Counted from the stretch's first letter, positions 11,670 through 60,567 are shown. The stretch is DNA of 64,000 bases from Candidatus Woesearchaeota archaeon (GCA_964372205.1 CAYJQB010000001.1:141180-205179); one strand, 5' to 3'. Notes: generated by a model not told the origin, from the sequence alone. Numbers and translations are program-made.

Positions 11670-13112
<1,443 letters not shown>

Positions 13113-42773: not shown

Positions 42774-45107
42774 CTATTCCTCTTTTTGTCTCATTAAAAA
42801 GTATATCATTACGACAATTATTCCTGCAACAATAAACTGATTGAAGTCAAAGAATCCTAAATCAACAGAGGGGGAACCGCAAAGAACGACTATAGATTCA
42901 TTCACACATAGAACATCATTAGGATTCCCAATTCCACTATATTCTGCAGTCACTTCAACATCTCTATATCCATCTATACACTCACCCATTTCGTAGGTGT
43001 ATATACAACTGTCGTCATCATCGTCTGAATGTCCAGTTCCAGAGCCAGTATAAGTTTTGTTGAAATAACATTGTTCATTATCTGTTCTCCAAGAACAACT
43101 ACACTCAACTATATCTCCATTGTAATAACTGCCACATTCAGGTTCTTCATTCCAGCCAGGAAGGTCCTCATCAAGGATGTTAGCAGCATCATTCACACAA
43201 TCATTTTGATTTTGATAATCCTGACAAAGTTCTATCTCAGTGTCTTCTCCGAGGCATCTGACTACTCCAGTGCCGTCATCAGCACAAACAAAATCATCTC
43301 TACAACAATCGTCTGCAGTTCTTGCTTGTCCATCAACTCCAACACAAGCTCTATTGACTGTTTGAGTATCTTGAGGGATTCCAGCTTTTCCATTATCATT
43401 CAATGGCAACCAGGAATTGCCTCCATCGACACACTGTCCTAAGTCAAATGTCCTTTCAGTTTCCTTTGTCAGAGAGAAGAAGCTATTTGCGAATTCATAC
43501 TTGAATATTATAATTCTCCTTCCTGCAAAATTATCTCCAAATAACTTGCTTCCAGAAACATAATCTCCTCCAGAGCCTGCATCAAAGTCTCCGTCTTCAA
43601 AATTCCATGTGAAGTTACTTTCAGTGGTGAATCCCTTATCTGGCGTGATGATTGGCAAATCGCTCAGAAGACAACCAACAGGGACGTTTTCTGTTCTATC
43701 AGGGCAATATCCTGCAACACAATTTACAGTTGGACAACCACTTCCGAAGCTGTTCACAACAAAACTATCACTTGCATTGTATTTTACCACAAGCCTAGGA
43801 TTATTATTAGGTCCAGATACTTGAGGCACTAGTTCAAGATGGAAAGGTTCATTGACATAAGCCATGATTCCAGGAGATGCTAAGACTACTATCCCTACTT
43901 GATCCTCATCATAAAGTCCTGTATTTATATCACTTACCTTTAATGTAACTGTTTTCTGTCCAGTTGTTGCAAAGGTATATTCAAAAGTCTCCAGGTTGCT
44001 TGTAAAATCATCTTCCTCTATCGTCCACTCAAATTCTAAATGTGATGTGTCATCAGTTCCAGGATCTTGCGTGAACCACACTCTAGTGTTCTGGAAATAA
44101 ACTCCCTTATGTTCCGGAGCAGTTATATTTGCTTTTGGAGGTTCTGGTGGTGCAGCTTCGCAATGTACATTTAATTTATAGCTTATCCTACTGCTCCCAG
44201 GTATGCTGGCATTAAAGAAAAATTCTAATCCTCCATTTTCACAATCAGTTCCGTCGTCTGCACTATCTATCAACTGCTGTGTCAATAGAAGGTTTGCTGT
44301 AGCAAGTCCATTGTTTATACTTCCCGTAAAGGTTCCTATATTATCATCTCCAGAGTCCTTTCTTCCATTGGCATTATCATCATCCCAAGCATCAAAATTG
44401 ACTGTCCCACTCCCAAGATTTGTTTGAGCAACCAAAGTCACAGTCTGATCAATGTATGCTTCTGTTATTCTCTGTCCGGACTTTCTCCACTCAACACTTG
44501 TTATATCTCCACTTTGCTGACAATCTCCGCATAGTTGGTCTTCTCCTACCTCACATATTCCATCATTATCACAAGTTCCACTTCCTCCAGCTGCCGCAGA
44601 ACTACAACACACTTTTGTAGGATATGTTCCTGGCTGTCCTAAATGAGAGTTAGTTCCTGCCCCCTGATACGAATCTGACAAAGTAACAATCTCTTTCTCA
44701 CCAGGCAAATTACAGCTGTATATTGTCGTTCTACAGACTAAATCTCCGTAACATACATAACTATATGCAGAATTTATACCATAAGGCCATTGTGCATGCG
44801 CATTATTCAAAGGATATCCATTGTTCTTTGCAAGTCTTATAACCGCGTTCTCTGGAACCCCATCCCCATTACCATCTATACAATTGTGAGGGTTAGCTCC
44901 AGTGTAAGACTCCCCGTATAGAGAATCATAACATATCTCAAAGCTATAAGGCACCGCTGTGAAGTTCCATTCAGCTCCATGAGAATTACTACTACTGAAC
45001 ATCCTGAAAAGAGTCTGCCCATCAACACAACTTGCTGCGAAAACACCTGAAGACAAGAAAGCTAAACTGACAGCAAAAAATACTCCTAAACCAAGCCACC
45101 TCTTCAT
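42774..45107 (-). CDS. giant Cys-rich cell-surface protein with PKD-like domain, signal peptide and C-terminal TM anchor
   Basis: Signal peptide MKRWLGLGVFFAVSLAFLSSGVFA. More than 45 Cys. PKD-like block EYTFATTGQKTVTLKVSD. C-terminal helix IVAGIIVVMIYFLM. Confidence 0.55.
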   Translation of the reverse strand: MKRWLGLGVFFAVSLAFLSSGVFAASCVDGQTLFRMFSSSNSHGAEWNFTAVPYSFEICYDSLYGESYTGANPHNCIDGNGDGVPENAVIRLAKNNGYPLNNAHAQWPYGINSAYSYVCYGDLVCRTTIYSCNLPGEKEIVTLSDSYQGAGTNSHLGQPGTYPTKVCCSSAAAGGSGTCDNDGICEVGEDQLCGDCQQSGDITSVEWRKSGQRITEAYIDQTVTLVAQTNLGSGTVNFDAWDDDNANGRKDSGDDNIGTFTGSINNGLATANLLLTQQLIDSADDGTDCENGGLEFFFNASIPGSSRISYKLNVHCEAAPPEPPKANITAPEHKGVYFQNTRVWFTQDPGTDDTSHLEFEWTIEEDDFTSNLETFEYTFATTGQKTVTLKVSDINTGLYDEDQVGIVVLASPGIMAYVNEPFHLELVPQVSGPNNNPRLVVKYNASDSFVVNSFGSGCPTVNCVAGYCPDRTENVPVGCLLSDLPIITPDKGFTTESNFTWNFEDGDFDAGSGGDYVSGSKLFGDNFAGRRIIIFKYEFANSFFSLTKETERTFDLGQCVDGGNSWLPLNDNGKAGIPQDTQTVNRACVGVDGQARTADDCCRDDFVCADDGTGVVRCLGEDTEIELCQDYQNQNDCVNDAANILDEDLPGWNEEPECGSYYNGDIVECSCSWRTDNEQCYFNKTYTGSGTGHSDDDDDSCIYTYEMGECIDGYRDVEVTAEYSGIGNPNDVLCVNESIVVLCGSPSVDLGFFDFNQFIVAGIIVVMIYFLMRQKEE

Positions 45108-45154: not shown

Positions 45155-46573
45155 TTAACCCTTAACGACAGCAAGAGGTTTTAGTCTTACAACAAGTTTT
45201 CCAATACCCAGCTCATCACTCACTTTTACAACTTCATTCACATCTTTATAGGCTTCAGGAGCTTCCTCAAGAATCCCTTTCATGCTCCCTGCTTCAGTAT
45301 AAATGTCTCTATCAGCTAAGTCTTTTTTGATACTCTCGAGGTTTAAGTTCTTTATAGCATAACTTCTCGAAAGAACTCTCCCAGCTCCATGAGCTGTACT
45401 TGCAAAACTAATCTTTGAAGCTTCATTAGTTCCGCAAAGAACATAAGAATAAGTCCCCATACTTCCCGGTATAAATATTGGCTGTCCAACTTTTCTATAC
45501 ATTGCCGGAAGTTCCTTTCTACCCTTTCCAAAACTCCTAGTAGCACCCTTCCTATGTATGCATAGTTCTTTCTTCTTCCCATCAATCTCAAAAGTTTCAA
45601 ATTTTGCAATATTATGGGCTACATCATACACCAATTCCAGATTACTTTTTGGAAAATACTTCTTGAACGCATTTCTTATCTGGTACATTATCAATGTCCT
45701 ATTCACAAAAGCAAAATTAGCAGCAGCTCTCATCGCTCCTAAATAGTCCCTACCTAATTTGCTGTTTATTGGAGCACATGCAAGCTCTCTATCAGGGAGT
45801 TGTTTAAACCCATACTCTTTTTCCATATCTCTTATGTAGTCTGATGCAGTCTGATGTCCAAGCCCCCTGCTCCCAGAATGTATCAGTACACATATCTGTC
45901 CCTTCTTTTTCAATCCAAAAGCCTTCGCAGTTTTTTCATCATATATTTCATCAATCTCCTGTATCTCAAGAAAATGGTTTCCAGCTCCTAGTGTACCTAG
46001 TTGATTTCTTCCCCTTCCTTTCGCCTTTGCACTTACTTTTTCAGGCTCTGCCCCAAGAATACATCCTCCATCTTCACACTTTTCAGCATCTTCTTTCATA
46101 GCATAACCATTTTCAACAGCCCAAACAACACCACGTTTCATCACATCATCAAGTTCTTTCTCCTTAAAACTAAACTCTCCTTTCACACCAACTCCTGAAG
46201 GCACGTCTCTCTTTATTTGATGAGTTATCTCCTTTCTTTTTTTAAGAAACTCTTCCTTTGTCAAATTAGAAGCAAGAAGTCTAACTCCGCAATTTATATC
46301 GTAACCAATTCCTCCAGGAGAGACGATTCCTTTCTGAATATCAAAAGCAGCAACACCTCCAACAGAAAATCCATACCCTTGATGAGCATCCGGCATAGCA
46401 AGTGAATATCCAACAATTCCAGGTAGTTGAGCAACATTTCTTAATTGTTCAAGAGTCTTATCTTCCTTTATCTTCTCAATAAGCTTCTCAGAGGCGAATA
46501 CTCTTCCAGGAACTAGCATTTTTCCTTCTTTTTTCAACTCGTAAACATTCTCAGATATCTTCTTTATTTCCAT
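45155..46573 (-). CDS. rtcB: RNA-splicing ligase RtcB
   Basis: GYSLAMPDAHQGYGFSVGGVAAFD and the His-rich metal site CVLIHSGSRGLGHQ. Start taken at the internal Met MEIKKIS. Confidence 0.85.
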   Translation of the reverse strand: MEIKKISENVYELKKEGKMLVPGRVFASEKLIEKIKEDKTLEQLRNVAQLPGIVGYSLAMPDAHQGYGFSVGGVAAFDIQKGIVSPGGIGYDINCGVRLLASNLTKEEFLKKRKEITHQIKRDVPSGVGVKGEFSFKEKELDDVMKRGVVWAVENGYAMKEDAEKCEDGGCILGAEPEKVSAKAKGRGRNQLGTLGAGNHFLEIQEIDEIYDEKTAKAFGLKKKGQICVLIHSGSRGLGHQTASDYIRDMEKEYGFKQLPDRELACAPINSKLGRDYLGAMRAAANFAFVNRTLIMYQIRNAFKKYFPKSNLELVYDVAHNIAKFETFEIDGKKKELCIHRKGATRSFGKGRKELPAMYRKVGQPIFIPGSMGTYSYVLCGTNEASKISFASTAHGAGRVLSRSYAIKNLNLESIKKDLADRDIYTEAGSMKGILEEAPEAYKDVNEVVKVSDELGIGKLVVRLKPLAVVKG

Positions 46574-46611
46574 ACAGAGAAAGGTCAAAACAGGTTTATT
46601 AATGTTTCAAA

Positions 46612-47430
46612 TCAATTAAACTTCCGCCTCAAATGAGGAGGTTTATTCTTTTCATGTCTAACAATAAGAAATATAACAATCACCAATACAATAAACCCTC
46701 CCACAAAGAGATACCAATAATCTTTCACAAAACCATAAGCCGAACCAACTACCCTAGTATCCCTTTCTCCGATTATTTTTCCCAATCCTTCATCATCTTC
46801 TGAATTAGTATCACTAGGTTCAGCATCAGAAATTTTTTCGTGTATAGAACTTATTAATATACTTGCATAGCCCCCTGTGATATTTAGTAATGTGACTGAA
46901 AGGTCATAAAAGTTATCATTATTAACTTCAAATATACCTGACTCACCAATTATCAGTATTTTCTGCTGTGGCTTAGAGGATACATTGATTGTTACATTTA
47001 AATCTGTAAGTTCTATAATTCCAATATGATGTGTTTCTCCACTAACATTTAGCCTTATTCTTTGTCTCTTTTTCAGTGTTTTTTCTATTAATCCTATCTC
47101 TTCAAATGGTTTGTCGTCTTCTGCAAAAGTACCTCCTGTCCAAAAATCAGAATTCCCAGAACCTCCTCCGCCACCACCTCCAGTGTCTCCGTCTCCATCA
47201 CCTGTTGCCCCACAATAAGTTTGAATGTCTGTTGTAGAGTCAATTGTAATCAAAAATATGTCTGAGGGACTGCTTTCGTCATTACCACAAGTAATTCCAT
47301 TAATCGTAATGTTTGTATTATAAACTCCTATTTCATCAGCATCAATAAAAGTAAAATCAAAAGTTAAAGTAGTGTTAGAACCAGTAGCGGTTAAATTTGT
47401 ATATTGATTTATCCTAACAGCAGAAGCCAC
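46612..47430 (-). CDS. surface protein with Gly-rich linker and C-terminal TM anchor
   Basis: The tracked ORF begins with GTG. The in-frame upstream sequence encodes a signal-peptide-like KKKILISILLIFLVLPVASA with no ATG (see findings). A run of G follows; the C-terminal helix is LFVGGFIVLVIVIFLIV. Confidence 0.4.
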   Translation of the reverse strand: MASAVRINQYTNLTATGSNTTLTFDFTFIDADEIGVYNTNITINGITCGNDESSPSDIFLITIDSTTDIQTYCGATGDGDGDTGGGGGGGSGNSDFWTGGTFAEDDKPFEEIGLIEKTLKKRQRIRLNVSGETHHIGIIELTDLNVTINVSSKPQQKILIIGESGIFEVNNDNFYDLSVTLLNITGGYASILISSIHEKISDAEPSDTNSEDDEGLGKIIGERDTRVVGSAYGFVKDYWYLFVGGFIVLVIVIFLIVRHEKNKPPHLRRKFN

Positions 47431-47476: not shown

Positions 47477-48796
47477 TTAAATCCATGTTATCCCAACAAT
47501 CCCAGTAGCAGTTCCATTATATATGAAAATATTATCAGTATCGTTTATCCAATACATATCTCCTTCTCTCTTGCTTAATGATTGATAAGTCGCATTTGTG
47601 ACATGAGGTAGGGAGAAGAATCCTATTCTATCTCTATATGGAGAATTTGCAGTCTGTTGATTATACTTGCTCAAGGAGTAACTATTGGATGAACCTATAA
47701 CTAAAGGAGTGTTAGGATTATCTATTCTTACGTCAATATCCCAAGCAGTTCCTCCACCAGTAGAAGATGTCTTAAAAATATTCCCATAATATTTCTTTTC
47801 ATCTGAAGCTGATTGAGGATGTATGTAAGCTCCTGTTGCGTTTGCTCCTCCAGATGAAGTAACCTCAAATAGATTACCTATCACGCTAGAGCCATGATTA
47901 GATAAGAATGTCCCAGAATCGTGAATACCTCTAACATTTGCTCCTCCAGTTCCAATCGCATAAATATGGTTAGAAATTATAGTAGTTTCTCCAGTTCCAA
48001 ATATACCTATTCCTGCATTTGGATTTGTTGAAAATGAAGTGTTTGTTTGAAGGAAAATATTGTTTGCAATTATGTCCCCCCTTCCTTCCGCTGTATGTCC
48101 TTCTTTTCTAATCCCAATAGTAATCTGAGTTCCAGCAGTTCGGTTCATGATAATATCATTTCCCGTGATAAACATAGACTTTTCTCCTGAACCACCAAAT
48201 GAAATTCCACAAGCTGCCTGCGACGAAATAGTATCTATCTGAATCCTATTGTCAGATACTATGGTATTTGAAGAATAGACTAGATTTGGAATGTATAATC
48301 CCATTAAAGTAGCTTTAATATTTGAGTCCTGTAATCTGAACCTATCAAGCTTTGCGGAAGCATTAATTGCGATAGATTCATTACCCGTAGCAAAAATAGA
48401 ACAATCCCTTATGGATGAATTTGAGTAAACTGTTATGAAAACAGAAGCAGTGTTATTTTGGATTGTTGTCGAATCTACCCCTGAACATTTTAAATCGACA
48501 TTCGCTGGAAGCTCCAAGTGTGACTCATTGTAAATTCCAGGAGCAACAAATATAGTCTGTCCTGGAGAAACCGCAGAGATAGCAGCAGATACGCTAGGAT
48601 AATTTCCAAATCCATGAGAATTAACAACAAGGACATCATTAGAAATAGTATTCAAAAAGAGATTTCCACTTATATTAATACTGTCTGTGAAAGAACTTGC
48701 CGAGTTGCTTATAGTCGTGGCATAACTAACCGCTAAGAATCCAATTACGAAAATAAAACCCCAGAGGGTTAGGTAAAATCCTTTACTTTTTTTCAT
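47477..48796 (-). CDS. secreted right-handed beta-helix (pectin-lyase-fold) protein
   Basis: Signal peptide MKKSKGFYLTLWGFIFVIGFLAVSYA. Repeated units of about 22 aa (N.S, I.N.I, SDN) typical of parallel beta-helix repeats. Confidence 0.5.
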   Translation of the reverse strand: MKKSKGFYLTLWGFIFVIGFLAVSYATTISNSASSFTDSINISGNLFLNTISNDVLVVNSHGFGNYPSVSAAISAVSPGQTIFVAPGIYNESHLELPANVDLKCSGVDSTTIQNNTASVFITVYSNSSIRDCSIFATGNESIAINASAKLDRFRLQDSNIKATLMGLYIPNLVYSSNTIVSDNRIQIDTISSQAACGISFGGSGEKSMFITGNDIIMNRTAGTQITIGIRKEGHTAEGRGDIIANNIFLQTNTSFSTNPNAGIGIFGTGETTIISNHIYAIGTGGANVRGIHDSGTFLSNHGSSVIGNLFEVTSSGGANATGAYIHPQSASDEKKYYGNIFKTSSTGGGTAWDIDVRIDNPNTPLVIGSSNSYSLSKYNQQTANSPYRDRIGFFSLPHVTNATYQSLSKREGDMYWINDTDNIFIYNGTATGIVGITWI

Positions 48797-48860: not shown

Positions 48861-49271
48861 TCAAACATCCAGCACAAAAACAGCTTCCCAGGAATCTTTA
48901 TTTTTCTTCACGTACATTTCAGAATAAGTAGGAGCTTTCACATGGTCAAGATAGGGATAATTAGAGGTTTTATCTCCTTGCAGTTCAGCTTCCAGTTTAT
49001 TATCTCTTAATTTCACTTTTGCTTTTGAAACAATAAATCCTTTCGCATCACTCAAATAAATAAGCTCGTCAATGAAATTGTAGAGTAATGATTCACTATC
49101 TTCTCCCTCAATTTTTATTTTGACTTTCTTTAAAGGTTTTATTTTTTCCCCTCTAGAAACAAAATTAGAGAATGCTAAAGCAGAATTCTCAAATATCTTC
49201 TCAAGGCTCATCCCCCTGATTTTGAACTTCACTTCAGAAGTATGCTCCAGCATTTCTATGTCTTTATTCAT
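48861..49271 (-). CDS. archease (RtcB activator)
   Basis: MLEHTSEVKFKIRG at the N-terminus and DHVKAPTYSEMYV near the C-terminus (archease KAVTYH motif). Start taken at Met6, which forms an ATGA overlap with the upstream gene. Confidence 0.75.
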   Translation of the reverse strand: MNKDIEMLEHTSEVKFKIRGMSLEKIFENSALAFSNFVSRGEKIKPLKKVKIKIEGEDSESLLYNFIDELIYLSDAKGFIVSKAKVKLRDNKLEAELQGDKTSNYPYLDHVKAPTYSEMYVKKNKDSWEAVFVLDV

Positions 49272-49672
49272 TGTGCATTTTTCCACATGAAAAGTCTTAT
49301 CTTTTTTGGAGAATATCCTAAATAAGAAATATCAGAACTTATAACTCTCTCTTGCGCAAAAACCTCTCCAGAAACGTAATTTTCCATACCACATACTTCG
49401 TTGACTTCGCATATTGTGAAAGTGTGGTTAAACGTTCCAGCAGGTATTCTTTTTTCCAAAAAGCGTTCTATCTTTTCTCCATCATCGCTTAGAACAGCCT
49501 TTCTCAATTCGGTGTTCCTAGACATTTCTTCTAATATATCTCTTCCAAGCTCGTCATAGTCAAGTCCGCTAAAATCCGGTCTTGTTTCCACAAAAAGAAA
49601 ATATATGACTCCTATAAGTAGCATAATAGACACACTAGCTTCAATTATTCTTATAATTCCTTTCGAGTTCAT
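49268..49672 (-). CDS. pilin-like protein (class III signal peptide)
   Basis: MNSKGIIRIIEASVSIMLLIGVIYFLF: KG, then hydrophobic residues, with E at +5 after the predicted cleavage. Confidence 0.45.
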   Translation of the reverse strand: MNSKGIIRIIEASVSIMLLIGVIYFLFVETRPDFSGLDYDELGRDILEEMSRNTELRKAVLSDDGEKIERFLEKRIPAGTFNHTFTICEVNEVCGMENYVSGEVFAQERVISSDISYLGYSPKKIRLFMWKNAQ

Positions 49673-49673
49673 T

Positions 49674-50366
49674 TTACCAAACTTTAACAGTAAGATCTGA
49701 AAAAACAGATTCTCCGTCAACATTAATAGATTCTTTTCTTTCTGATTCGCTCCAAACTTCTAAGTCTGCAGGTATTTCCATCTCAGAAATAAAACTACTC
49801 CCTTCCAATATATTGAATGAAAATCCAAACTCAACCCTCCCGGGAAGATTAAATTCTTCTTTCACAGAACTATAAGATTCGTAATAGCTATTGTTAAGTT
49901 CCAATGCAGCTGCCTCACTCCATACTTCTTTTGTATCAGAGCTCGATACAGTAAATTGCCCCTCTTCTAGATTTGTTCCTTGAGAAACGCTTCCAGCATT
50001 ATAAGTTTTTGAAAATTTAACAACAATAAATTTTTCAGAGCCCCTATCTATTACTGCATATCCTCCTTCATACTTAGACGGAAGAAAGTCTCCTGCATTG
50101 TTTTCAGCTCTGACGTTGTATCCTTTAGGATTTTCTAAAGGAATTCCTACAACTCCCTCATTTACCTGATTATCGATGACTACAGAGTAAGTTATCAGTT
50201 CAACACTTATGTTTTGAGATATTTCATCCATAGCATAATCTATTGAAGATTCAACAACCCTATCAACATCCAAAGGATTGAAAAAGTATAACGCGAAGAC
50301 TAAAAATCCCATAAAAAGCACAAAAGCCAGAATGACTTCAACATGCCCCATCCCTCTTTTTTCCAT
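49674..50366 (-). CDS. pilin-like protein (class III signal peptide)
   Basis: MEKRGMGHVEVILAFVLFMGFLVFALYF. Confidence 0.45.
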   Translation of the reverse strand: MEKRGMGHVEVILAFVLFMGFLVFALYFFNPLDVDRVVESSIDYAMDEISQNISVELITYSVVIDNQVNEGVVGIPLENPKGYNVRAENNAGDFLPSKYEGGYAVIDRGSEKFIVVKFSKTYNAGSVSQGTNLEEGQFTVSSSDTKEVWSEAAALELNNSYYESYSSVKEEFNLPGRVEFGFSFNILEGSSFISEMEIPADLEVWSESERKESINVDGESVFSDLTVKVW

Positions 50367-50407
50367 TATCGATAAAACGTAATATTATTTAAATACCTTG
50401 CCTATAA

Positions 50408-51178
50408 GTGTCTATGTTAAATAATCTGGTTGAAGAAATAAAAAAGAAAAAGGAGTTTAGGGGCATTTCTTCAGAGTTTGTTTCGGGAGTTCTTCAAAGT
50501 TTTTTAAAGAAAAATAACATTTCCTTTCCTCAAGGAAAAAGAGAAGAAAAACTTATAGTAAAATCAGTCAGAGCAGAACTCAGAAGATTCACAGGGCAGT
50601 ACCAGACTTCATCAAATGGTAAACAAAGAGAAGAGCTCTTAAAACAAGGAAAAATGAATGAGTTACTTTCAACACACGTTTCCACAAAAGAAAGATTGTC
50701 TTTCTATGACGAACTTATATCAGAGATAAACAAGTTAAATCCCTCATCTATTTTGGACTTGGGCTGTGGGCTAAACCCCTTAGCCATTGCAACAAAAAAG
50801 GTCAAATATTATGCTTGTGATATCCAGGAAGATGAGTTAAAACTAGTCTCCGAATTTTTCAAGTTAAATCACATACCTGGAAAATCTTTCTACTGCGACC
50901 TAAGAAATGAAATAAATCTTCCAAAAGCAGATCTTTGTCTAATATTCAAAGTCTTTGACCTTCTAGACAAAAAGGGCCATGCAGTTTCAAAAAGAATTCT
51001 CTCAAATCTAACTTGTAGGAATATAATAGTCAGTTTCTCAACAAAAAAATTATCAGGCAGAGCTATGAACAATCCCAGAAGATACTGGTTCGAAAAGATG
51101 CTGGACTCTTTAGAATATTCTTTCGAAACAAAAAGTTCAGACAATGAAATATTTTATTTTATCCTAAAAAGACTCTAG
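50408..51178 (+). CDS. ArmA/RmtB/Sgm (FmrO)-family 16S rRNA (guanine1405-N7)-methyltransferase homolog
   Basis: STHVSTKERLSFYDEL ... SSILDLGCGLNPLAI ... VKYYACDIQ ... NIIVSFSTKKLSGRAMNNPRRYWFEKM aligns block-for-block with ArmA as I recall it (IHSSTNERVATLNDFY ... SSILDFGCGFNPLAL ... IIYHAYDID ... NFVISFPIKSLSGKE..ENY..WFE). Same length, about 256 aa. Confidence 0.55.
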   Translation: MSMLNNLVEEIKKKKEFRGISSEFVSGVLQSFLKKNNISFPQGKREEKLIVKSVRAELRRFTGQYQTSSNGKQREELLKQGKMNELLSTHVSTKERLSFYDELISEINKLNPSSILDLGCGLNPLAIATKKVKYYACDIQEDELKLVSEFFKLNHIPGKSFYCDLRNEINLPKADLCLIFKVFDLLDKKGHAVSKRILSNLTCRNIIVSFSTKKLSGRAMNNPRRYWFEKMLDSLEYSFETKSSDNEIFYFILKRL

Positions 51179-52019
51179 TCCCAGAAGATATCAGGAATGC
51201 TAAGATTATCATAACAATAGAATGTTTGAAACCAGATTTAACAGTCCCTTCAGAAAGTTTCCCTATCACCAGTCCTGCAAAAAATCCCTGCGTGAGTAGC
51301 AGATAGAGAAAAGGCCTCGCGAGCGCTTCTGGAGAGTAAGTCGAAGTGTTTACATCAGCAAAATTCCCAGAAGCAAGAGTATCAACATTATTGAAAGAGC
51401 CTATAGAATTTATTCCAGAAGTCAAAGGCAGTATCTTGAATTCCATAATAAGCATTATTCCTATGAATATCAAGAATATTATATATCCCTGCACAACTAA
51501 AGTGGACACAGCATTTTTTCTTTCCTTTCTCAACTTCTCTATCTCATAGATGGAATTCGCAACAGAATCTAATATGTGGTCTATTTCTCCTCCAGCATTT
51601 TCCGCTTCCCTTATCAAGCTTATAGCTCTTTTGACAACCTCGCTATCTGCTTCATTAGCAAAGTTTACAAAAGCTCTGCTTATCGGTATCCCTACAGATA
51701 TTTGGTTTGCAAGCTTTTTAACAGCAGGACTTAAGGGCCCAAATCCCTTATCTTTCATGTTCAGTATACTCTTCCCAATAGGTGTTCCTGACTTCACGCT
51801 CTCAGCCAGATTTCTCGAAAATTCCAAAAATTGCTGGTTGATTTCCTGTTCTTTTTTGCTTTCAAGAACCAACCCTGCTAAGATTGGAAGAAGCACCGCA
51901 GTAAAACCTATTCCCAAAAGAAATATGAAAAGCTTGTCACCTAAAAAGAAAGAAATGTCTACGATAACGATAAGCAGACCAAAAATACCTCCAATCCAAT
52001 GCATCTTTCTTATTCTCAT
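51159..52019 (-). CDS. TadC/FlaJ-like pilus-assembly membrane protein (single T2SSF domain)
   Basis: T2SSF-type region VKRAISLIREAENAGGEIDHILDSVANSIYEIEKLRKERKNAVS flanked by TM helices. Confidence 0.55.
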   Translation of the reverse strand: MRIRKMHWIGGIFGLLIVIVDISFFLGDKLFIFLLGIGFTAVLLPILAGLVLESKKEQEINQQFLEFSRNLAESVKSGTPIGKSILNMKDKGFGPLSPAVKKLANQISVGIPISRAFVNFANEADSEVVKRAISLIREAENAGGEIDHILDSVANSIYEIEKLRKERKNAVSTLVVQGYIIFLIFIGIMLIMEFKILPLTSGINSIGSFNNVDTLASGNFADVNTSTYSPEALARPFLYLLLTQGFFAGLVIGKLSEGTVKSGFKHSIVMIILAFLISSGTRVFLG

Positions 52020-52285
52020 CTTTTCCCCCTCATCATCTTATACACTAAATACACGAACGAAGTTAGTATAAATATGTATGATATCCAATAAAACCCAGGG
52101 AATGCTGTTTCTGTAAACACCTGAGCACATAAGTTGTCTACAGGATAGCTTCCAAGTGGGTTGAAGAAGCTGGGGGTGCAAGAGTTGTGCCACTCAAAAG
52201 GCATCAGCAAAAATGCAGTCATCAAAATAAGCTCTGCTATAATCAGTTTTCTGAACCATCCCTCATAATTTTTTCTTTTTTTCAT
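52016..52285 (-). CDS. small membrane protein
   Basis: 89 aa with two hydrophobic helices, lying between the two T2SSF-domain genes. Confidence 0.35.
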   Translation of the reverse strand: MKKRKNYEGWFRKLIIAELILMTAFLLMPFEWHNSCTPSFFNPLGSYPVDNLCAQVFTETAFPGFYWISYIFILTSFVYLVYKMMRGKR

Positions 52286-52286
52286 T

Positions 52287-53615
52287 TTAATATCCTGGTT
52301 GCTTTAATCCCAACAATACTATAAACAATATGTTAACAAGAGCAACGATTAGGATTATTGCTAAAGTCATAGAACTTGTTCCAATACCTATACTGATTCC
52401 TGAGACAGAAATCATTACTAAAAGCAAGAGAAGTATCATCGGAGCAGCTATAACAACGCTGATGTAAATATCCATAAATGTCTCCGCAGTCTTTGTGAAT
52501 TTCTCTCTTTCAAGGCGATAATTAAGAAGCAGTGTCTCAGCCCTTTTTTCCAGGAAAGATTTTAAATCTCCTCCAGTCATTATTGCCGTAGCAAGTCCTT
52601 TCATCAAGTCAGAAAGTTTCTTACTTGGTGTAGACTGAGCGATATTTTTTAAGGCAGTAACGAGGTCATATCCATAAACATTTATTTGATTGAGAAGCTT
52701 TCTTATCTCGCTTCCAGTGTTCCTATATTCCTTACTTGTTCCGATTATTTTGAATATCTGTGTAGGTTCAATGCCACTTCCAGAGATTGAAGCCATATGT
52801 ATTGCTACAAAAGGAAGTTCTCTGTCTATTTTACTTCCAAGTGATTTCTTTTCTGTATAAGGGTAGAAATAAAATGCTGCGAACATAAGTAATGGGGCTG
52901 CTAAGATTATCCAAGACACTTTCAGAATCCGCATTCCAATACTCCCTGCATATGATGTAAGGTATGGAGAGCTGAATTCAACATTGAAGAACAACAAGAA
53001 TACAGTGAAACCTATTCCAATTATTCCTGCAACAATCATCATGACAAACATCATCGACAGATAAGTGGTTGGGAGAATGTTCATATTGCTCTTCCTAAGA
53101 TCAAGTCTTAAGCCTGCAAATTTTCCCTTTTCCAAAAGCTCTTCAGAGAAATTTCTGAAAAGAGAATTAGAAAATTTAGCGAATCCGGCAGATTTTTTAT
53201 ACTCTTTTATTTTATCTTCTTTTACAGAATCTTTTCTCTTTAGTTTTCTCAAAAGCTCTTCACTTATACTCAATTCTTCCAAAAATTTATCTTTGTCCTG
53301 TCCGCGCAAAGACACCTTGATATACCCATTGTTTCTCAGTTTAACTTTAGAATCCGGACCTGCTTCATTCACTTCCAAGGTGAAGATATTCGCCGAAGAT
53401 TTCTTTCCAGGAATTTTCCTGATAAGTGATACGTCCTTCAATATCTCAACAACAGAATCATTTATCAATTTTATTCTTCTTTTATAAGAACCTATCATAG
53501 ACTCTAGAAGTTTTTTTTCATCAACAGATGAGAATTCAGTTCTCTCAATAAATCCGGAGAGTTCCCTGACCATTTTTATTTCATTTTCAATGTTCTCTAT
53601 CAGTTCATCTATCAT
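52287..53615 (-). CDS. TadB/FlaJ-like pilus-assembly membrane protein (cytoplasmic N-domain plus T2SSF domain)
   Basis: 442 aa. A cytoplasmic N-terminus of about 170 aa, TM helices, and a T2SSF-like region (LLNQINVYGYDLVTALKNIAQSTPSKKLSDLMKGLATAIMTGGDLKSFLEKRAETLL). Confidence 0.55.
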   Translation of the reverse strand: MIDELIENIENEIKMVRELSGFIERTEFSSVDEKKLLESMIGSYKRRIKLINDSVVEILKDVSLIRKIPGKKSSANIFTLEVNEAGPDSKVKLRNNGYIKVSLRGQDKDKFLEELSISEELLRKLKRKDSVKEDKIKEYKKSAGFAKFSNSLFRNFSEELLEKGKFAGLRLDLRKSNMNILPTTYLSMMFVMMIVAGIIGIGFTVFLLFFNVEFSSPYLTSYAGSIGMRILKVSWIILAAPLLMFAAFYFYPYTEKKSLGSKIDRELPFVAIHMASISGSGIEPTQIFKIIGTSKEYRNTGSEIRKLLNQINVYGYDLVTALKNIAQSTPSKKLSDLMKGLATAIMTGGDLKSFLEKRAETLLLNYRLEREKFTKTAETFMDIYISVVIAAPMILLLLLVMISVSGISIGIGTSSMTLAIILIVALVNILFIVLLGLKQPGY

Positions 53616-53819: not shown

Positions 53820-55379
53820 TTATTTAGACACGTTCTGTTCAGGGCTCTTAGCGGGTTCCACTACCCCATACTTTCTAAGTACCGCCGCAGGATTTCTATA
53901 GTATTCGTTCACAATCTTCTGCATATCTGCAAAGCCGAAAATACCTGCTTTGTATAGGTTGTAGAGCAACCTTGCTCTTCTAGAAAACTCTACCTGAAGC
54001 TCTTCGAGGCTTGTTCCATACCTTGCAGAAATTTTTTCAAATACTTTACTTTGTTTCTTGAAGAAGAAAGAATCTTTTCCGGCATCCCACACAAGAGGAG
54101 TATTTATCAAAGTGGACCCATTCTTATCAACATTGACAACTTCGACAATCTCTCTTAACCTTCTCGTATGCTTATTTTTTAAGATTGCATGAGTCATAAC
54201 TGCTATACAATCTAAAGTGTTTACCAACGTTGGTGAAAGGTTGATTGGAGGAGTCTGTAATCTTCTTACAACTGTCTCCAAAGAGTCTGCGTGCAGAGTG
54301 CTTATAGAAGGATGACCGGAAGCCATTCCCTGGAAAAGAACAGACGCCTCTTTACCCCTTACCTCTCCAACAATCACATAGTCTGGATTTTGTCTGAAAG
54401 AGTTTTTCAGAAGGTCAAAAAGGTCGACTTGTCCCACCTTTCCAATACCTACAGAGGTTCTAGCTACAGCCGGAAGCCAGTTCTCTCTCGGAAGATTAAG
54501 TTCTCTAGTGTCTTCAATAGAGATGACTCTTGCTTCAGGAGGAATAAAAAATGCAAGAGCGTTCAGGAGAGTTGTTTTTCCAGAAGATGTTCCTCCAGTT
54601 ATCAATATGTTAGACTTGAACTGTATCAACAGCCAAAAGTATGCGAGCATCTCCGGACTTAAAGTATGCAGAGCAATCAATTGCGTTGGAGTCCAAGGGA
54701 CTTTTGTGAACTTTCTTATCGTGAATGTAGGTCCTCGAGAGGTGACATCTTTAGTATAAGTAGCATTTACTCTGCTTCCATCAGGAAGCGAACCATCTAA
54801 CAAGGGATTAGCGTAAGATATGTATTTTCCACTTCTTTGCGAAAGTTTTTCAACAAAACTTGCAAGTTCGTCAACGTTCCTGAATATGATGTTAGTCTTA
54901 AGATTTCTGAACATTCTGTGAACGATGTAAGTAGGAGTATCAACTCCATTACACTCTATATCTTCAATAAAGTAGTCTTTCAATAAAGGGTCTATCTGAT
55001 TCATCCCTATAAAATCTCTATAAAGATAGTAGAACAACCTCTCATAACTTGATTCGCTAATCTTCAGATTAAGCTCCCCTATAAGCAATCTCGCAGTTTT
55101 GTCTATGTACTCAACAAGGCTTTGTAGAGTTTTATCAACAGCAAGATTGACATTTATCATCTCAAGCATAGCTTCCTCTATTTTTTTGAGAGCTATTTTT
55201 TCCTCATCGCTAAGAAGTGGCTCTTCAACATCGTAGACAAGCTCACCTGCATTCTCATCCCAATAGATGTGCGCATTCGCATAAGGAGCTATCAAAGAAT
55301 ACCTAATATCTATCTGAGTTTTATCATCAAATTTCTTAAGTGGAGGGATGCTAGGCCGAACATTTATTTTAATCACCAT
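53820..55379 (-). CDS. FlaI/TadA/VirB11-family type IV pilus assembly ATPase
   Basis: Walker A LITGGTSSGKTTLLNAL; Asp box VISIEDTRELNL; Walker B DYVIVGEVRGKEA; His box LHADSLE. 519 aa. Confidence 0.85.
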   Translation of the reverse strand: MVIKINVRPSIPPLKKFDDKTQIDIRYSLIAPYANAHIYWDENAGELVYDVEEPLLSDEEKIALKKIEEAMLEMINVNLAVDKTLQSLVEYIDKTARLLIGELNLKISESSYERLFYYLYRDFIGMNQIDPLLKDYFIEDIECNGVDTPTYIVHRMFRNLKTNIIFRNVDELASFVEKLSQRSGKYISYANPLLDGSLPDGSRVNATYTKDVTSRGPTFTIRKFTKVPWTPTQLIALHTLSPEMLAYFWLLIQFKSNILITGGTSSGKTTLLNALAFFIPPEARVISIEDTRELNLPRENWLPAVARTSVGIGKVGQVDLFDLLKNSFRQNPDYVIVGEVRGKEASVLFQGMASGHPSISTLHADSLETVVRRLQTPPINLSPTLVNTLDCIAVMTHAILKNKHTRRLREIVEVVNVDKNGSTLINTPLVWDAGKDSFFFKKQSKVFEKISARYGTSLEELQVEFSRRARLLYNLYKAGIFGFADMQKIVNEYYRNPAAVLRKYGVVEPAKSPEQNVSK

Positions 55380-55418: not shown

Positions 55419-55940
55419 CTAAACTTGTTCAAAACTTACTATTTGTATGCCCTCATCTGTAAATCCGTCGTTCTGGAACCTGAATTTATAGGGAACACTG
55501 CTCGATTGGAATATCAAAATCTCATCTGTTCCTTCAAAAGTCAGATTGAACTGATACTCTAATGAAAGCTCAACCTTGTGTTTTTTTGCACCTTCTGTAG
55601 TTAGCACTTTTACTCTTCCTATCTCCGTCTCAACACCAGGTTCAGAGAATAGCAAATCACTATCTTCTAGCACAAAATTTATCTTGTCATTCGCTCTATC
55701 AAATCTAAGTTGCCCTCTTTTCATCCCAAACTCAACAGTCCTAGCATTTCCAACTCCTCCAGATGTTGTTTCAGACAATTTAGAATCCAATGCGTTCATA
55801 GAAGATATAGTTTGTTCAAGAATAGACTTATCCCTGAATTCATTTATTCTAGGTGTGACTATAGCCAATACCACTGCTAACAGAGCAAGCCCTATCAAAG
55901 TGTAAATAACTGTCTCTACCCAAATCTGGCCTTTTTCCAT
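55419..55940 (-). CDS. pilin-like protein
   Basis: MEKGQIWVETVIYTLIGLALLAVVLAIV, with the pilin-type hydrophobic N-terminus. Confidence 0.45.
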   Translation of the reverse strand: MEKGQIWVETVIYTLIGLALLAVVLAIVTPRINEFRDKSILEQTISSMNALDSKLSETTSGGVGNARTVEFGMKRGQLRFDRANDKINFVLEDSDLLFSEPGVETEIGRVKVLTTEGAKKHKVELSLEYQFNLTFEGTDEILIFQSSSVPYKFRFQNDGFTDEGIQIVSFEQV

Positions 55941-55941
55941 T

Positions 55942-56478
55942 TTAATAAGCTAGCAAACTCTGTCTGGCATCATTATCCAAGCAGGTGTTAACTCTTATAG
56001 AATCACTAACATCACAAAGCTTTCCAGACTTCAATATTGCATTGACTTCAAGCTCATCAAATAATCCATCCGCGACATAAGTTCTTACTCCCCCCTTACT
56101 AGGCACATTTAGCTTCGTATCAAATCCTGAACTAAGCATTCTTATCTTTATTCCTAAAGAATTTCCATCAGTTCCATTCATTATCTCCATGACTTCAGAA
56201 GTCCCGTCCTTGAAAAGCGAGACTTTTATTCCAGCGACTTCCTCCCCATTGACTCTCACAGAGAATCCTGTTCTGTTCTTATCTCCTCCATCAACATAAC
56301 AGTTGTAAGGAGTTTCATCAAATTTCACATCTCCAAGAGTGTTTATACATTCTTCACTTCCTTCAAGATTTTCGCTTACAAAAGGAATTACAAAAACAGC
56401 CAGAATGCTTATAGCAACAAAAGTTATTATTAAAATCAGAACAGTAGCGATTATAGGACTTATACCTCGTTTATTCAT
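55942..56478 (-). CDS. archaeal type IV pilin
   Basis: MNKRGISPIIATVLILIITFVAISILA has the canonical KRG-ISP..ATVL class III signal. Confidence 0.6.
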   Translation of the reverse strand: MNKRGISPIIATVLILIITFVAISILAVFVIPFVSENLEGSEECINTLGDVKFDETPYNCYVDGGDKNRTGFSVRVNGEEVAGIKVSLFKDGTSEVMEIMNGTDGNSLGIKIRMLSSGFDTKLNVPSKGGVRTYVADGLFDELEVNAILKSGKLCDVSDSIRVNTCLDNDARQSLLAY

Positions 56479-56527
56479 CACACTCCTCTCCATCTCGTTA
56501 AATGTAGAAATCTCTTTTTATATGTTT

Positions 56528-56989
56528 CTAAATAGTCACTCCAACGCCATATTGGTCAGCGCAAGTATAAGCCACTTTTCCCGCATCAGTCTCTCCAAGG
56601 ATTATAGGAACGACTAGTATTTCGTCATTATCATCAAAATCACTTCCAAGAAGTTTTTTGGTTAAGGTTATAGATTCTCCAGTCCCTACGCTCTCACTAG
56701 TATACTCTGTCACAACAACCTCTCCTTTACCAAATCTCTTTATGTCAAATCCGTATAACGGAGCTTCACCCTGATTGTTTATTTCAAGAACATAATCTTC
56801 TCCAGAAGGAAATATTCCAGCTTGGAATTTAACTTTTCCAGCACATGCATTTTCGGCAGGCTCTCCAAATTTGGAAACTCCTTCTTTGACAAACCCTCTT
56901 GCCCATAAGAAAACTATTGAAGCAAGGATAATAACAATCATTATTAACAATACTGAAGCAATTACCGGACTCAATCCCCTCTTATTCAT
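56528..56989 (-). CDS. archaeal type IV pilin
   Basis: MNKRGLSPVIASVLLIMIVIILASIVFLWA. Confidence 0.6.
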   Translation of the reverse strand: MNKRGLSPVIASVLLIMIVIILASIVFLWARGFVKEGVSKFGEPAENACAGKVKFQAGIFPSGEDYVLEINNQGEAPLYGFDIKRFGKGEVVVTEYTSESVGTGESITLTKKLLGSDFDDNDEILVVPIILGETDAGKVAYTCADQYGVGVTI

Positions 56990-57029
56990 TTTAATAGATG
57001 TTCTGTTTTATTTTTATATCTTTGTAACA

Positions 57030-58646
57030 CTAAGGGTTAGCTATGCATTCACCCCATCCACATTGGGAAGTACATGTTTGCGTTCCTCCACCGATTTCTC
57101 CACCGCTTCCAGAATCTCCACCATAACTAATAGCGAATCCACCCACTCCACCCCCACCAGTTTGATCTCCCGGAGTGCAATCTCGTATATCTCCTACTTC
57201 ACATATTTCATATCCTTCATCCCATACTCCATTTCCACAATACCCTGCACATCCACCTATATTGAATTTACACTCATTCTGGTTTCCAGGAACATAACAA
57301 CTCAATGTTCCATAGTAATAGTTTCCGTATCCAGGAGAAGGAATGTTTGTACAGTCTTTTCCATTCAGATTGTTTCCGTCACACTCTTCCCATATTTGGT
57401 CAATAAGTCCATTTCCACAGACAGGATTATTTGAATCACATCCATCAGGAACTCCATCACCATCACTATCCTGGTTATCATCAAATCCATCACAAGTATC
57501 GTCTGTGTCACAAACTCCATCTCCATCTGTGTCATCTGGATTGTCAAATGGACACATATCTGCATCATCGCAAATTCCATCTTCATCAGTATCGAAGTTA
57601 GATTGTCCGTAACAATCACATGCATCACCTAATCCATCTCCATCACTATCCTGCTGATTACTATTTGAGTCATAAACACAGTTGTCATCGCTGTCACGTA
57701 CTCCATCCCCATCAGAATCTCTTGGAGTAACTTTCAGTTCATTTGAAGAGTCAATAAACTCATTACCATTTTCTACTAAAAATGCTCTAAAAATATATTC
57801 TGGATTGTCGTTTATTCCATCATCCTGTTCCCACACAGCTGTCCATGTGACTGACGCTACAGCTCCAGAGAACATTACATTCCCAGGCATATTAAAACTG
57901 ACAGCATCTCCATCATCCCAGTTTCCGCTTCCAAATAGGGAATCATCCTCTCTTATCTCAAATCTCACCTCTTTTCCGTCGCAGTACGAATCTCCTCCAA
58001 TAATAAGGTTTACATTTTCTCCCTCTTCTACTTGCGTTGTGCTCCATGATGCGCTAGTCAATCCACACTCCTGCTGATTGTTCCCACCACCATTTCCATT
58101 GTCAGAATCATCAAGCAAGTTGTTCTGAACATCAAAGTTTATACATTGGATTATCTCAAGAGATTTACTAGCCTCACCACATACATGACCATCACTCAAT
58201 ATTGGAAATATATCAACTCTGTCATAAGCACCATTTGCAACATAAATTCTCACTCCTCCCTCGTTATTCGCTTCCAAAGGCAGTCCGAATGACTGCTGAT
58301 AAGACATCCTTAATAGGTTAGAAGTTACACCATCTTCAACATCAACAATTTCTGTGCTTCCACTTTGCAATAATCCTACTCTAAATCCTCTGATGTTCTC
58401 GCTTTCAATTTTTATAGAAAATCCAGTTCTTTGTTTATCTGTATCACTATACCAGCAATTGTAATCAGAGCTTTTATCAAAATTAATTTCATTCAGCGCA
58501 TCAAAACAATCTTCTCTCCCGAATATATCTTTCACAAAAGGAATAGCATATTTTGCAAGCAACCCTCCAAGAACAATCACTACCAATATAATAAGAATAG
58601 TAGCCATAACAGGGCTTATACCCTTTTTATTCAACCCTCTTTTCAT
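57030..58646 (-). CDS. large pilin-like adhesin with thrombospondin type-3 (calcium-binding) repeats and a Cys-rich C-terminal domain
   Basis: N-terminus MKRGLNKKGISPVMATILIILVVIVLG. Central D-x-D-x-D-G-x-x-D-x-x-D-x-C repeats (DSDGDGVRDSDDNC, DSDGDGLGDACDC, DTDEDGICDDADMC, DTDGDGVCDTDDTC, DSDGDGVPDGCD). The C-terminus is rich in G and C. Confidence 0.6.
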   Translation of the reverse strand: MKRGLNKKGISPVMATILIILVVIVLGGLLAKYAIPFVKDIFGREDCFDALNEINFDKSSDYNCWYSDTDKQRTGFSIKIESENIRGFRVGLLQSGSTEIVDVEDGVTSNLLRMSYQQSFGLPLEANNEGGVRIYVANGAYDRVDIFPILSDGHVCGEASKSLEIIQCINFDVQNNLLDDSDNGNGGGNNQQECGLTSASWSTTQVEEGENVNLIIGGDSYCDGKEVRFEIREDDSLFGSGNWDDGDAVSFNMPGNVMFSGAVASVTWTAVWEQDDGINDNPEYIFRAFLVENGNEFIDSSNELKVTPRDSDGDGVRDSDDNCVYDSNSNQQDSDGDGLGDACDCYGQSNFDTDEDGICDDADMCPFDNPDDTDGDGVCDTDDTCDGFDDNQDSDGDGVPDGCDSNNPVCGNGLIDQIWEECDGNNLNGKDCTNIPSPGYGNYYYGTLSCYVPGNQNECKFNIGGCAGYCGNGVWDEGYEICEVGDIRDCTPGDQTGGGGVGGFAISYGGDSGSGGEIGGGTQTCTSQCGWGECIANP

Positions 58647-60197: not shown

Positions 60198-60231
60198 TAA
60201 AATTTCACAAATCTAAACTTTATAAGAATAG

Positions 60232-60490
60232 TGTAGGCGGGGAGATTGCTCAGCTTCAGCTTGCTGGCTACCTTCCAGCCTTCCTCAACTTTGCACCCCT
60301 ATAAGCACCGAAACTTCTGTTTAGGGCTGCTCCGATCAAGGCCTGACCCTTTTCACAGGAGTACGGTCGAACAGGACAAAGCGTCAACGTCCGGCGGAAG
60401 ACCAAAAAGCCTCCACATCACGCACTCCTTTAAGCCTGCCATAAAGCCCATTTGCAGATAGCGCAGGGCTAGCGCGCCAGCTTGCCTACA
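60232..60490 (-). ncRNA. GC-rich structured RNA candidate, most consistent with SRP (7S) RNA; strand uncertain
   Basis: About 52% GC and non-coding, between divergent genes. Terminal pairing UGUAGGC (60232-60238) with GCCUACA (60484-60490). The minus strand has GGUCAGGCC-UUGAUC-GGAGCAGCC, which resembles the SRP RNA domain IV motif GGUCAGGUCC-GGAA-GGAAGCAGCC. It also has two 5' hairpins (GCGC-UAGCCCU-GCGC and CUUUA-UGGCAGGCU-UAAAG) whose loops are complementary (AGCC/GGCU), like Alu-domain helices 3 and 4. Confidence 0.35.
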
Positions 60491-60567
60491 TAGTTCTCAT
60501 TCCCTCAGACTTTTTAAAGCCTTTCATACAACAAAGGGCTTAAATAACCAAATTTGTCAGTTGGGAA

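Follow-up and report, generated by a model that had tools for sequence, protein, structure and literature searches.

The window analysed here is a stretch of 64,000 nucleotides (nt) from a Candidatus Woesearchaeota archaeon (GCA_964372205.1, CAYJQB010000001.1:141180-205179), and the gene under study is a plus-strand open reading frame (ORF) within it that encodes a methyltransferase of the Arm/FmrO family and lies among minus-strand type IV pilus genes. The window also carries archaeal 16S rRNA, 23S rRNA and RNase P RNA. The host is a DPANN archaeon of the Pacearchaeota/Woesearchaeota-type Nanoarchaeota, which bears out the archaeal origin proposed in an initial annotation made by a model from the sequence alone.

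Taken from its mechanical start, a GTG at 50408, the ORF spans 50408-51178 on the (+) strand and translates to 256 amino acids (aa), in which the motifs LDLGCGLNPL, YYACDI, VSFSTKKLSGR and WFEKM can be read. The initial annotation had described this 256-aa frame and its motifs, and both are present as it described them; only the start is revised. The true start is probably the ATG at 50414, which gives a protein of 254 aa (50414-51178, + strand), because a 99%-identical database protein (P0001) has 254 aa and because no more than 12 nt separate the GTG at 50408 from a conserved TATA box (see below). This is the sole substantial plus-strand ORF between ~42.7 and 58.6 kb, with minus-strand genes on both sides, so that inspection of the ORFs agrees with the initial annotation's placement of it as the only plus-strand gene within a minus-strand pilus operon.

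The encoded protein belongs to the Arm/FmrO family

The protein matches the Pfam family FmrO (PF07091) with 70.1 bits (E value 2.6e-19), where the gathering score is 27. No other Pfam family rose above its own cut-off; PrmA and MTS came next, both below theirs, and with Methyltransf_25 also under its cut-off we rejected a better fit to an unrelated methyltransferase family. The NCBIfam model Rmt_gen aligned with residues 6-252, which is the full length of the protein with the N-terminal domain included, at 143.4 bits, and the best eight NCBIfam matches were all Rmt models. A sequence search of the PDB returned RmtB, RmtF, RmtC, Sgm and ArmA as top matches with E values of 3e-21 to 8e-13 (Sgm, 2.7e-13), and the best eight matches were all Arm/FmrO family members. 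When plasmids were searched by tblastn, rmtB, rmtF, rmtC and armA covered 93-100% of the query at 25-29% identity.

The predicted structure gives the same answer. An AlphaFold2 model made with 22 homologues had a mean predicted local distance difference test score (pLDDT) of 92.9, with residues 3-110 helical and an alternating beta/alpha domain following. Foldseek ranked RmtB, Sgm and RmtF at the top, with template modelling (TM) scores of 0.80-0.85 over both domains and 259-272 aligned columns; RmtC and ArmA came next, and unrelated class I methyltransferases appeared after a clear gap, at TM ~0.5. Model and superpositions thus match the two-domain architecture of the family, an N-terminal helical part (N1+N2) joined to a C-terminal class I Rossmann-fold domain. 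Membership of the Arm/FmrO family is secure. The initial annotation had made this family call and had named, as outcomes that would speak against it, the lack of an FmrO match or a better match to an unrelated family; the PF07091 match and the fold support the call, and neither of those outcomes was seen.

Residues predicted to act on G1405 are conserved

The structure of RmtC on the 30S subunit by cryo-electron microscopy, together with mutagenesis, defines the residues that dock the enzyme on the subunit, distort helix 44 (h44) of the 16S rRNA and handle the flipped G1405 (PMC10288597). We aligned RmtB, RmtF, RmtC and ArmA, taken from plasmid records, with the window protein and its homologues, and counted residues per position over 218 archaeal-type sequences; the equivalences rest on sequence alignment alone. 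The set that binds S-adenosylmethionine (SAM), namely H90, S92, E95, R96, D117 and D138, is present in the window protein and kept in 197-218 of these sequences. Within it, S92 is equivalent to RmtC S107 (S in 215/218) and R96, in the HxSTxER motif, to Sgm R108 (R in 217/218), while D117 is the motif I Asp (218/218) and D138 the ribose-binding Asp (RmtC D160, Sgm D156; D or E in 218/218). At the positions that touch the flipped G1405 the protein has Y65, an aromatic contact (RmtC Y60; F or Y in 217/218), K181 (RmtC K204; K in 214/218) and K213 (RmtC K236; K or R in 156/218). The h44-distorting loop is represented by R218 (RmtC R241; K or R in 204/218) and M220 (RmtC M245; M in 195/218), and docking residues by R55 (RmtC R50; R or K in 218/218) and K52 (RmtC K47; K in 207/218). 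One clade-wide change is found at D184 (D in 203/218), where RmtC has T207 and RmtB, RmtF and ArmA have P; others, in N1, are taken up in the Discussion. As judged from this alignment, the catalytic and base-flipping machinery appears to be under strong purifying selection and part of the docking interface to have been redesigned.

The predicted substrate, the 16S rRNA, is encoded at 11670-13112 on the (−) strand. Its 1392-1409 region reads GCACACACCGCCCGUCAA, with the G1405 equivalent at window base 11786, and the opposite h44 strand reads AAGUCGUCACAAGG, with C1496 at base 11714. The initial annotation had proposed looking for a G1405 equivalent in h44, and it is indeed present, paired with C1496. 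U1406, C1407, A1408 (11783), A1492/A1493 (11718/11717) and U1495 are all found in this 16S rRNA, and the 1409-1491 pair is A-U. The N-terminal domain of RmtC docks on the h24, h27 and h45 surfaces (PMC10288597), and the corresponding loops of the window 16S rRNA read GGAUUAGAUACCC (h24), GCAA (h27) and GGGGAA (h45). A separate observation concerns base 11711 (− strand; E. coli 1499), which is C where the Rfam archaeal small-subunit consensus reads AAGUCGUAACAAGG with A1499 in upper case; this C lies three nt from C1496, the partner of the predicted target G1405.

The gene is old and widespread in DPANN archaea

A database clustered at 90% held 683 relatives of the methyltransferase, of which the best 120 are ~250-260 aa long and 46-56% identical to it; those with names come from Nanoarchaeota, Pacearchaeota and uncultured archaea. 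Where each species was represented by a single genome, at least 267 genomes carry a relative. The best 80 of these are all labelled archaea, and nearly all are DPANN (Pacearchaeota, Woesearchaeota, Nanoarchaeota and one Parvarchaeum). Six third-party annotation assemblies (L013, L069, L072, L073, L077 and L080) are titled 'uncultured Methanosarcinales archaeon' yet carry a DPANN-type methyltransferase; we suspect that they are mislabelled DPANN bins, but they could be true occurrences outside DPANN.

An archaeal profile retrieved 1651 clusters at 50% identity with E values of 1e-3 or better, 395 of them at 1e-30 or better, whereas RmtB, ArmA, RmtF and RmtC scored only 1e-15 to 1e-23 on the same profile; 395 clusters therefore outscore all four clinical enzymes tested. 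In a neighbor-joining tree, midpoint-rooted and thus in effect unrooted, so that it gives no direction of transfer between the domains, the four enzymes fell outside all 218 archaeal-type sequences. Together the profile scores and the tree place the window protein in a large, deep archaeal branch and argue that it is no stray bacterial resistance copy. The gene is old, chromosomal and vertically inherited, and it is conserved across the DPANN group.

The methyltransferase gene keeps an antisense site in a pilus cluster

The minus-strand genes on either side form a type IV pilus (Tad-like) cluster with a T2SSE ATPase, two T2SSF proteins and pilin-type proteins. Divergent from the methyltransferase gene is p230 (49674-50366, − strand), whose product is conserved and pilin-like; it has no Pfam match, and by eye its N-terminus resembles a class III signal. 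Downstream of p230 is p151 (49268-49723, −), another conserved pilin-like protein. On the other side, and convergent with the methyltransferase, is a gene for a T2SSF-domain membrane protein of 286 aa (TadB/C-like; 51159-52019, −; PF00482, 61 bits), whose 3′ end overlaps that of the methyltransferase gene by 20 nt in the window. Beyond it lie a second T2SSF-domain membrane protein, of 442 aa (52287-53615, −; profile match, conserved order), and a type II/IV secretion assembly ATPase of the PilB/FlaI-like kind (53820-55379, −; PF00437, 108 bits; PilB3_C). The upstream part of the cluster consists of four pilin or pilin-like genes in conserved order, p173, p183, p153 and p538 (55419-58646, −). 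Pilin_N (PF07790) matches only p183 and p153 of these, and p173 and p538 are pilin-like by their N-termini, as judged by eye.

We searched the 80 best loci by tblastn with the proteins encoded by the window neighbours. In 67-69 of the 80 the order is p151(−), p230(−), methyltransferase(+), T2SSF-286(−), T2SSF-442(−), in some cases p60(−), ATPase(−) and pilins(−). The methyltransferase gene adjoins p230 in 69/80 loci and T2SSF-286 in 67/80, and p151 is present in 62/80. Within the syntenic loci it is always antisense between the same two genes, with proteins that are 40-55% identical, and the convergent stop codons of the methyltransferase and T2SSF genes usually overlap (median −6 nt). RtcB and archease, further out, are kept in only 18-19 of the 80 loci, and the methyltransferase gene therefore lies within the part of the cluster that is conserved best. 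Its GC content (0.331) and its GC content at third codon positions (GC3; 0.314) are like those of the neighbouring genes, and within the window there are no mobile-element genes beside it and no aminoglycoside biosynthetic cluster nearby. Pilus context is missing at nine of the 80 loci, most of them among the most distant (37-40% identity). At one, L078, a gene for a MiaB-like radical-SAM/TRAM protein overlaps the methyltransferase gene upstream, and a tRNA-binding protein and eIF2-gamma are encoded downstream; another, L074, has an RNase D-like exonuclease, archease and a uracil-DNA glycosylase encoded next to it.

Several observations on the cluster and its surroundings stand apart from the methyltransferase. 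The pilus platform consists of two proteins with a single T2SSF domain each (286 and 442 aa), whose genes flank an 89-aa membrane ORF (52016-52285), and the split into two T2SSF proteins is conserved in 65-67 of the 80 DPANN loci. Two large, Cys-rich and Asp-rich predicted surface proteins flank the cluster, one of 777 aa (42774-45107, −) and one of 538 aa (57030-58646, −), the latter with a pilin-like N-terminus followed by what look by eye like thrombospondin-type-3 Asp repeats; both may be adhesin-type, pilus-associated proteins. Just beyond the pilus genes are a putative RtcB RNA ligase (45155-46588, −), so named from a reading of the sequence, and an archease (48861-49286, −), named by tblastn to the Pfam-confirmed archease of L074; two genes of unknown type (46612-47430 and 47477-48796) separate them. 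In two distant DPANN loci without pilus context, L072 and L074, the methyltransferase gene is followed on its own strand by archease, two genes away in L074, and this recurring neighbourhood may or may not be meaningful. Finally, an archaeal signal recognition particle (SRP) RNA of ~261 nt lies at 60231-60491 (−). Its score of 77.8 bits falls short of the Rfam gathering score (96.5), and ~40 nt are deleted at the tip of one helix, giving a shortened form that is plausible for a reduced DPANN genome. The 'Bacteria_small_SRP' call made in gathering mode (41.1 bits) was rejected as the mislabelled S-domain of this shortened archaeal RNA.

A single TATA box may serve both divergent genes

The 47-bp divergent spacer between p230 and the methyltransferase gene contains a single TATA box, TTTAAATA, at 50388-50395, which is separated by 21 nt from the p230 start (50366) and by 18 nt from the ATG at 50414. 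Across loci the distance between the two starts is tightly clustered at 48-52 bp, and alignment of the spacers shows one conserved element, TTTA[AT]ATA, the remaining spacer being unconserved. The exact element occurs in 47 of 69 orthologous loci; in 44 of these 47 it is 21 nt from the p230 start, and in 38 it is 19-21 nt from the methyltransferase start. Where the spacer is longer, the box on the p230 side is still present, and a second TATA-like box is found ~16-25 nt before the methyltransferase ATG. Archaeal TATA boxes are centred ~26 nt upstream of the transcription start, and the spacing seen here therefore fits one box driving two divergent leaderless mRNAs. This suggests a shared bidirectional, leaderless promoter for p230 and the methyltransferase, for which TTTAAATA is the candidate. 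The methyltransferase would then be expressed from the TATA box it has in common with p230, probably as a leaderless mRNA, and the pilus cluster would fall into two transcription units. Sharing of the box would also explain how the antisense position has been frozen across the lineage, as the methyltransferase gene would not be easily moved.

Discussion

Family, fold, residue conservation, distribution, synteny, TATA geometry and the target nucleotides were obtained directly, and from these we infer the actual target and product, the transcription start sites and any resistance phenotype. The function we favor, at a probability of about 0.6, is constitutive SAM-dependent m7G1405 methylation of the host's own 30S subunits by an RmtC-type mechanism of docking, distortion and base flipping. 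By homology with RmtC, the N-terminal helical domain would dock on the h24/h27/h44/h45 surface of the assembled small subunit, and the loop at 213-220 (K213, R218 and M220) would pry h44 open and flip G1405 out. Y65 would stack between the flipped base and SAM, itself held by H90-x-S92-T-x-E95-R96, D117 and D138, and K181 would position N7 for methyl transfer from SAM. The expected outcome is a permanently m7G1405-modified decoding centre, a modification that in bacteria blocks the 4,6-disubstituted deoxystreptamine (4,6-DOS) aminoglycosides. We also count the RNA and translation neighbours at L074 and L078 in favor of rRNA methylation. The initial annotation had left three options side by side, namely an archaeal homologue, a horizontally acquired resistance gene, or a housekeeping modification of the decoding centre. 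Housekeeping modification is the best supported of these, and acquisition of a resistance gene by insertion is contradicted by synteny, promoter and composition. The first option was right about family and host, but such a homologue is not new in itself, NEQ545 having been reported in 2010.

Several points weigh against m7G1405 methylation as the function. The near-universal N1 residues that face h45, RmtC K20, Y21 and H54, are not matched in the window protein, which has E16 (E in 189/218), F17 (L or F in 199/218) and R59 (190/218 have R and just 19 have H) in their places. In RmtC, K20 and H54 touch G1515 and G1516 of h45 and their substitution abolishes activity, and substitution of Y21 strongly reduces it (PMC10288597). 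With all three replaced clade-wide, docking on h45 must differ and the target could have shifted. Basic residues beside the changed sites are conserved (K14/K15, K35, K52 and R55), and a one-residue shift in the alignment may place K15 at the position of RmtC K20. The loop equivalent to RmtC 237-246 is also two residues shorter than in the bacterial enzymes. The Rmt_gen score of 143.4 bits misses the equivalog cut-off of 250 bits of NF000466, and the protein is therefore not to be named an Rmt resistance allele. Because conservation of G1405 and of the docking surface is universal, their presence in the window 16S rRNA is a weak test. The function of NEQ545, an archaeal member described with perfect catalytic motifs and a diverged N-terminal domain, was called unclear (PMC2896518). 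The bidirectional promoter and its transcription starts, for their part, are read from the spacing of sequence elements only.

The changed residues are in line with a retargeted member, one that methylates another guanine of rRNA or tRNA or acts on an assembly intermediate. Besides the replaced h45 contacts (K20 to E, Y21 to L/F, H54 to R), D184 in place of P/T and the shorter loop, this explanation could draw on the tRNA-related neighbours of distant relatives (the MiaB-like protein, the tRNA-binding protein and archease). We nevertheless think it improbable, as the contacts to the flipped G, U1495 and the A1408 pocket are kept (K181, K213, R218, M220 and Y65), as are the basic docking residues of the R50, K47 and R39 type, and both domains can be overlaid on those of RmtB, Sgm and RmtF with TM scores of at least 0.8. 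A little less doubtful, though still unlikely, is the same m7G1405 chemistry with a different history, in which the gene passed from bacteria into the ancestor of Nanoarchaeota long ago and was kept as intrinsic resistance that protects these surface-attached archaea from aminoglycosides of the surrounding community. Every family member characterized so far is a bacterial enzyme that serves resistance or self-protection, the window 16S rRNA has the bacterial-type A1408, which in bacteria is part of the h44 aminoglycoside site (PMC10288597), and NEQ545 was placed nearer to the pathogen than to the producer enzymes (Husain et al., PMC2896518). Yet the gene is kept in several hundred reduced-genome species from many habitats, and it is also reported from the hyperthermophilic N. 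equitans and Nst1 (PMC2896518, PMC3655853), where aminoglycoside producers would be unexpected; the examined loci show no link to mobile elements or biosynthetic clusters, and our tree, in effect unrooted, gives no direction for an ancient transfer from bacteria.

The location of the gene invites two further explanations, both of which we consider very improbable. A pilus-related function, such as methylation of pilins or of another cluster component, would agree with a place in the conserved core of the cluster and with a promoter region in common with a pilin-like gene. Against this, the match to rRNA methyltransferases extends over the entire protein and takes in both its rRNA-docking N-terminal domain and its base-flipping loop, the opposite strand means that the gene is not co-transcribed with the cluster, and nine of the 80 loci lie away from pilus genes, the two examined (L074 and L078) being among RNA and translation genes. 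The other, marginally the less credible, is recent insertion of a horizontally acquired aminoglycoside-resistance gene; the initial annotation had taken the lone plus-strand position in a minus-strand cluster to suggest insertion. A local change of AT skew at 50-52 kb points the same way, though the strand switch alone would yield it. Insertion or horizontal transfer of recent date is ruled out by synteny, promoter conservation and composition: 67-69 of the 80 species-level genomes, with proteins 40-55% identical, have the gene at the identical antisense site, the TATA geometry is kept, GC and GC3 match the neighbours, no mobile-element genes adjoin, and identity to any clinical enzyme is only 25-29%.

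Resistance and self-protection are almost the only roles in which methyltransferases that form m7G1405 are known, and no evolutionary origin is known for the clinical enzymes. That a large, old archaeal branch persists in genomes of very small size speaks for a native ribosomal role of the modification. If the favored function is correct, a lineage-specific modification of the decoding centre would be added to archaeal ribosome biology, intrinsic aminoglycoside insensitivity of DPANN archaea would be predicted, and the natural variants (E16, R59, D184 and the shorter loop) would be available for studying how the family recognizes the 30S subunit. The single TATA box at fixed spacing is a candidate for a bidirectional leaderless archaeal promoter. 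A broader picture, to which we give somewhat less than even odds, is that all of Pacearchaeota, Woesearchaeota and Nanoarchaeota carry m7G1405 as a constitutive rRNA modification. The enzymes responsible would form a deep archaeal branch of the 'aminoglycoside-resistance' methyltransferase family with re-engineered h45 contacts (E16/R59 instead of K20/H54), and their expression would be tied through one shared TATA box to host-attachment pilus genes; the whole lineage would then be intrinsically insensitive to 4,6-DOS aminoglycosides, and the modification would have a native physiological role outside producers.

Comparison with known systems

NpmA and KamB, which form m1A1408, are described as using the same docking surface on the mature 30S subunit with the same kind of resistance outcome (PMC10288597). 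They differ in belonging to another family without the N-terminal helical domain and in target base and chemistry, and they were not among the sequence or fold matches of the window protein. The self-protection enzymes of actinomycetes, Sgm, KgmB, GrmA and FmrO, share its Pfam family and fold (Sgm, 3lcu, TM 0.83, E 1.1e-16), and their genes, like that of the window, are intrinsic and chromosomal, not acquired. The window host differs from theirs as a reduced-genome archaeon without an aminoglycoside biosynthetic cluster nearby.

RmtB, RmtF, ArmA and RmtC, acquired by Gram-negative pathogens, align with the window protein over its full length at 25-29% identity and have the same two-domain fold, with TM scores of 0.80-0.85 for RmtB and RmtF. 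The window protein has the same SAM-binding residues, equivalents of K204, K236 and Y60, and the loop residues corresponding to R241 and M245. It differs in N1, with E, F and R at K20, Y21 and H54, and in a 237-246 loop shorter by two residues, and unlike theirs its gene is chromosomal, vertically inherited, without a mobile element and part of a separate deep clade. The marks of an acquired or self-protection determinant, a mobile element or antibiotic cluster and a patchy distribution, are not those found for the window gene.

The closest precedent is NEQ545 of Nanoarchaeum equitans, which Husain et al. (2010, PMC2896518) introduced into the Arm family as its 'first archaeal ortholog'. Of 15 genes listed as Nanoarchaeota signatures, its homologue in Nst1 is the only one with a functional annotation (Podar et al. 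2013, PMC3655853). We found nothing in the literature on the activity of an archaeal member, on m7G1405 in any archaeon, or on distribution in DPANN beyond these notes of 2010 and 2013, and neither paper reports the Pacearchaeota/Woesearchaeota distribution, the pilus-cluster synteny or the shared TATA box. With an archaeal homologue known since 2010 the surprise is limited, and the novelty of the present results, a DPANN-wide distribution with conserved pilus-cluster synteny and a shared TATA box, is modest. By its published description, NEQ545 resembles the window protein as an archaeal (Nanoarchaeota sensu lato) Arm-family protein with conserved catalytic motifs and a diverged N-terminal domain; it differs from the window protein in that the N-terminal domain of the latter matches Rmt_gen over its full length.

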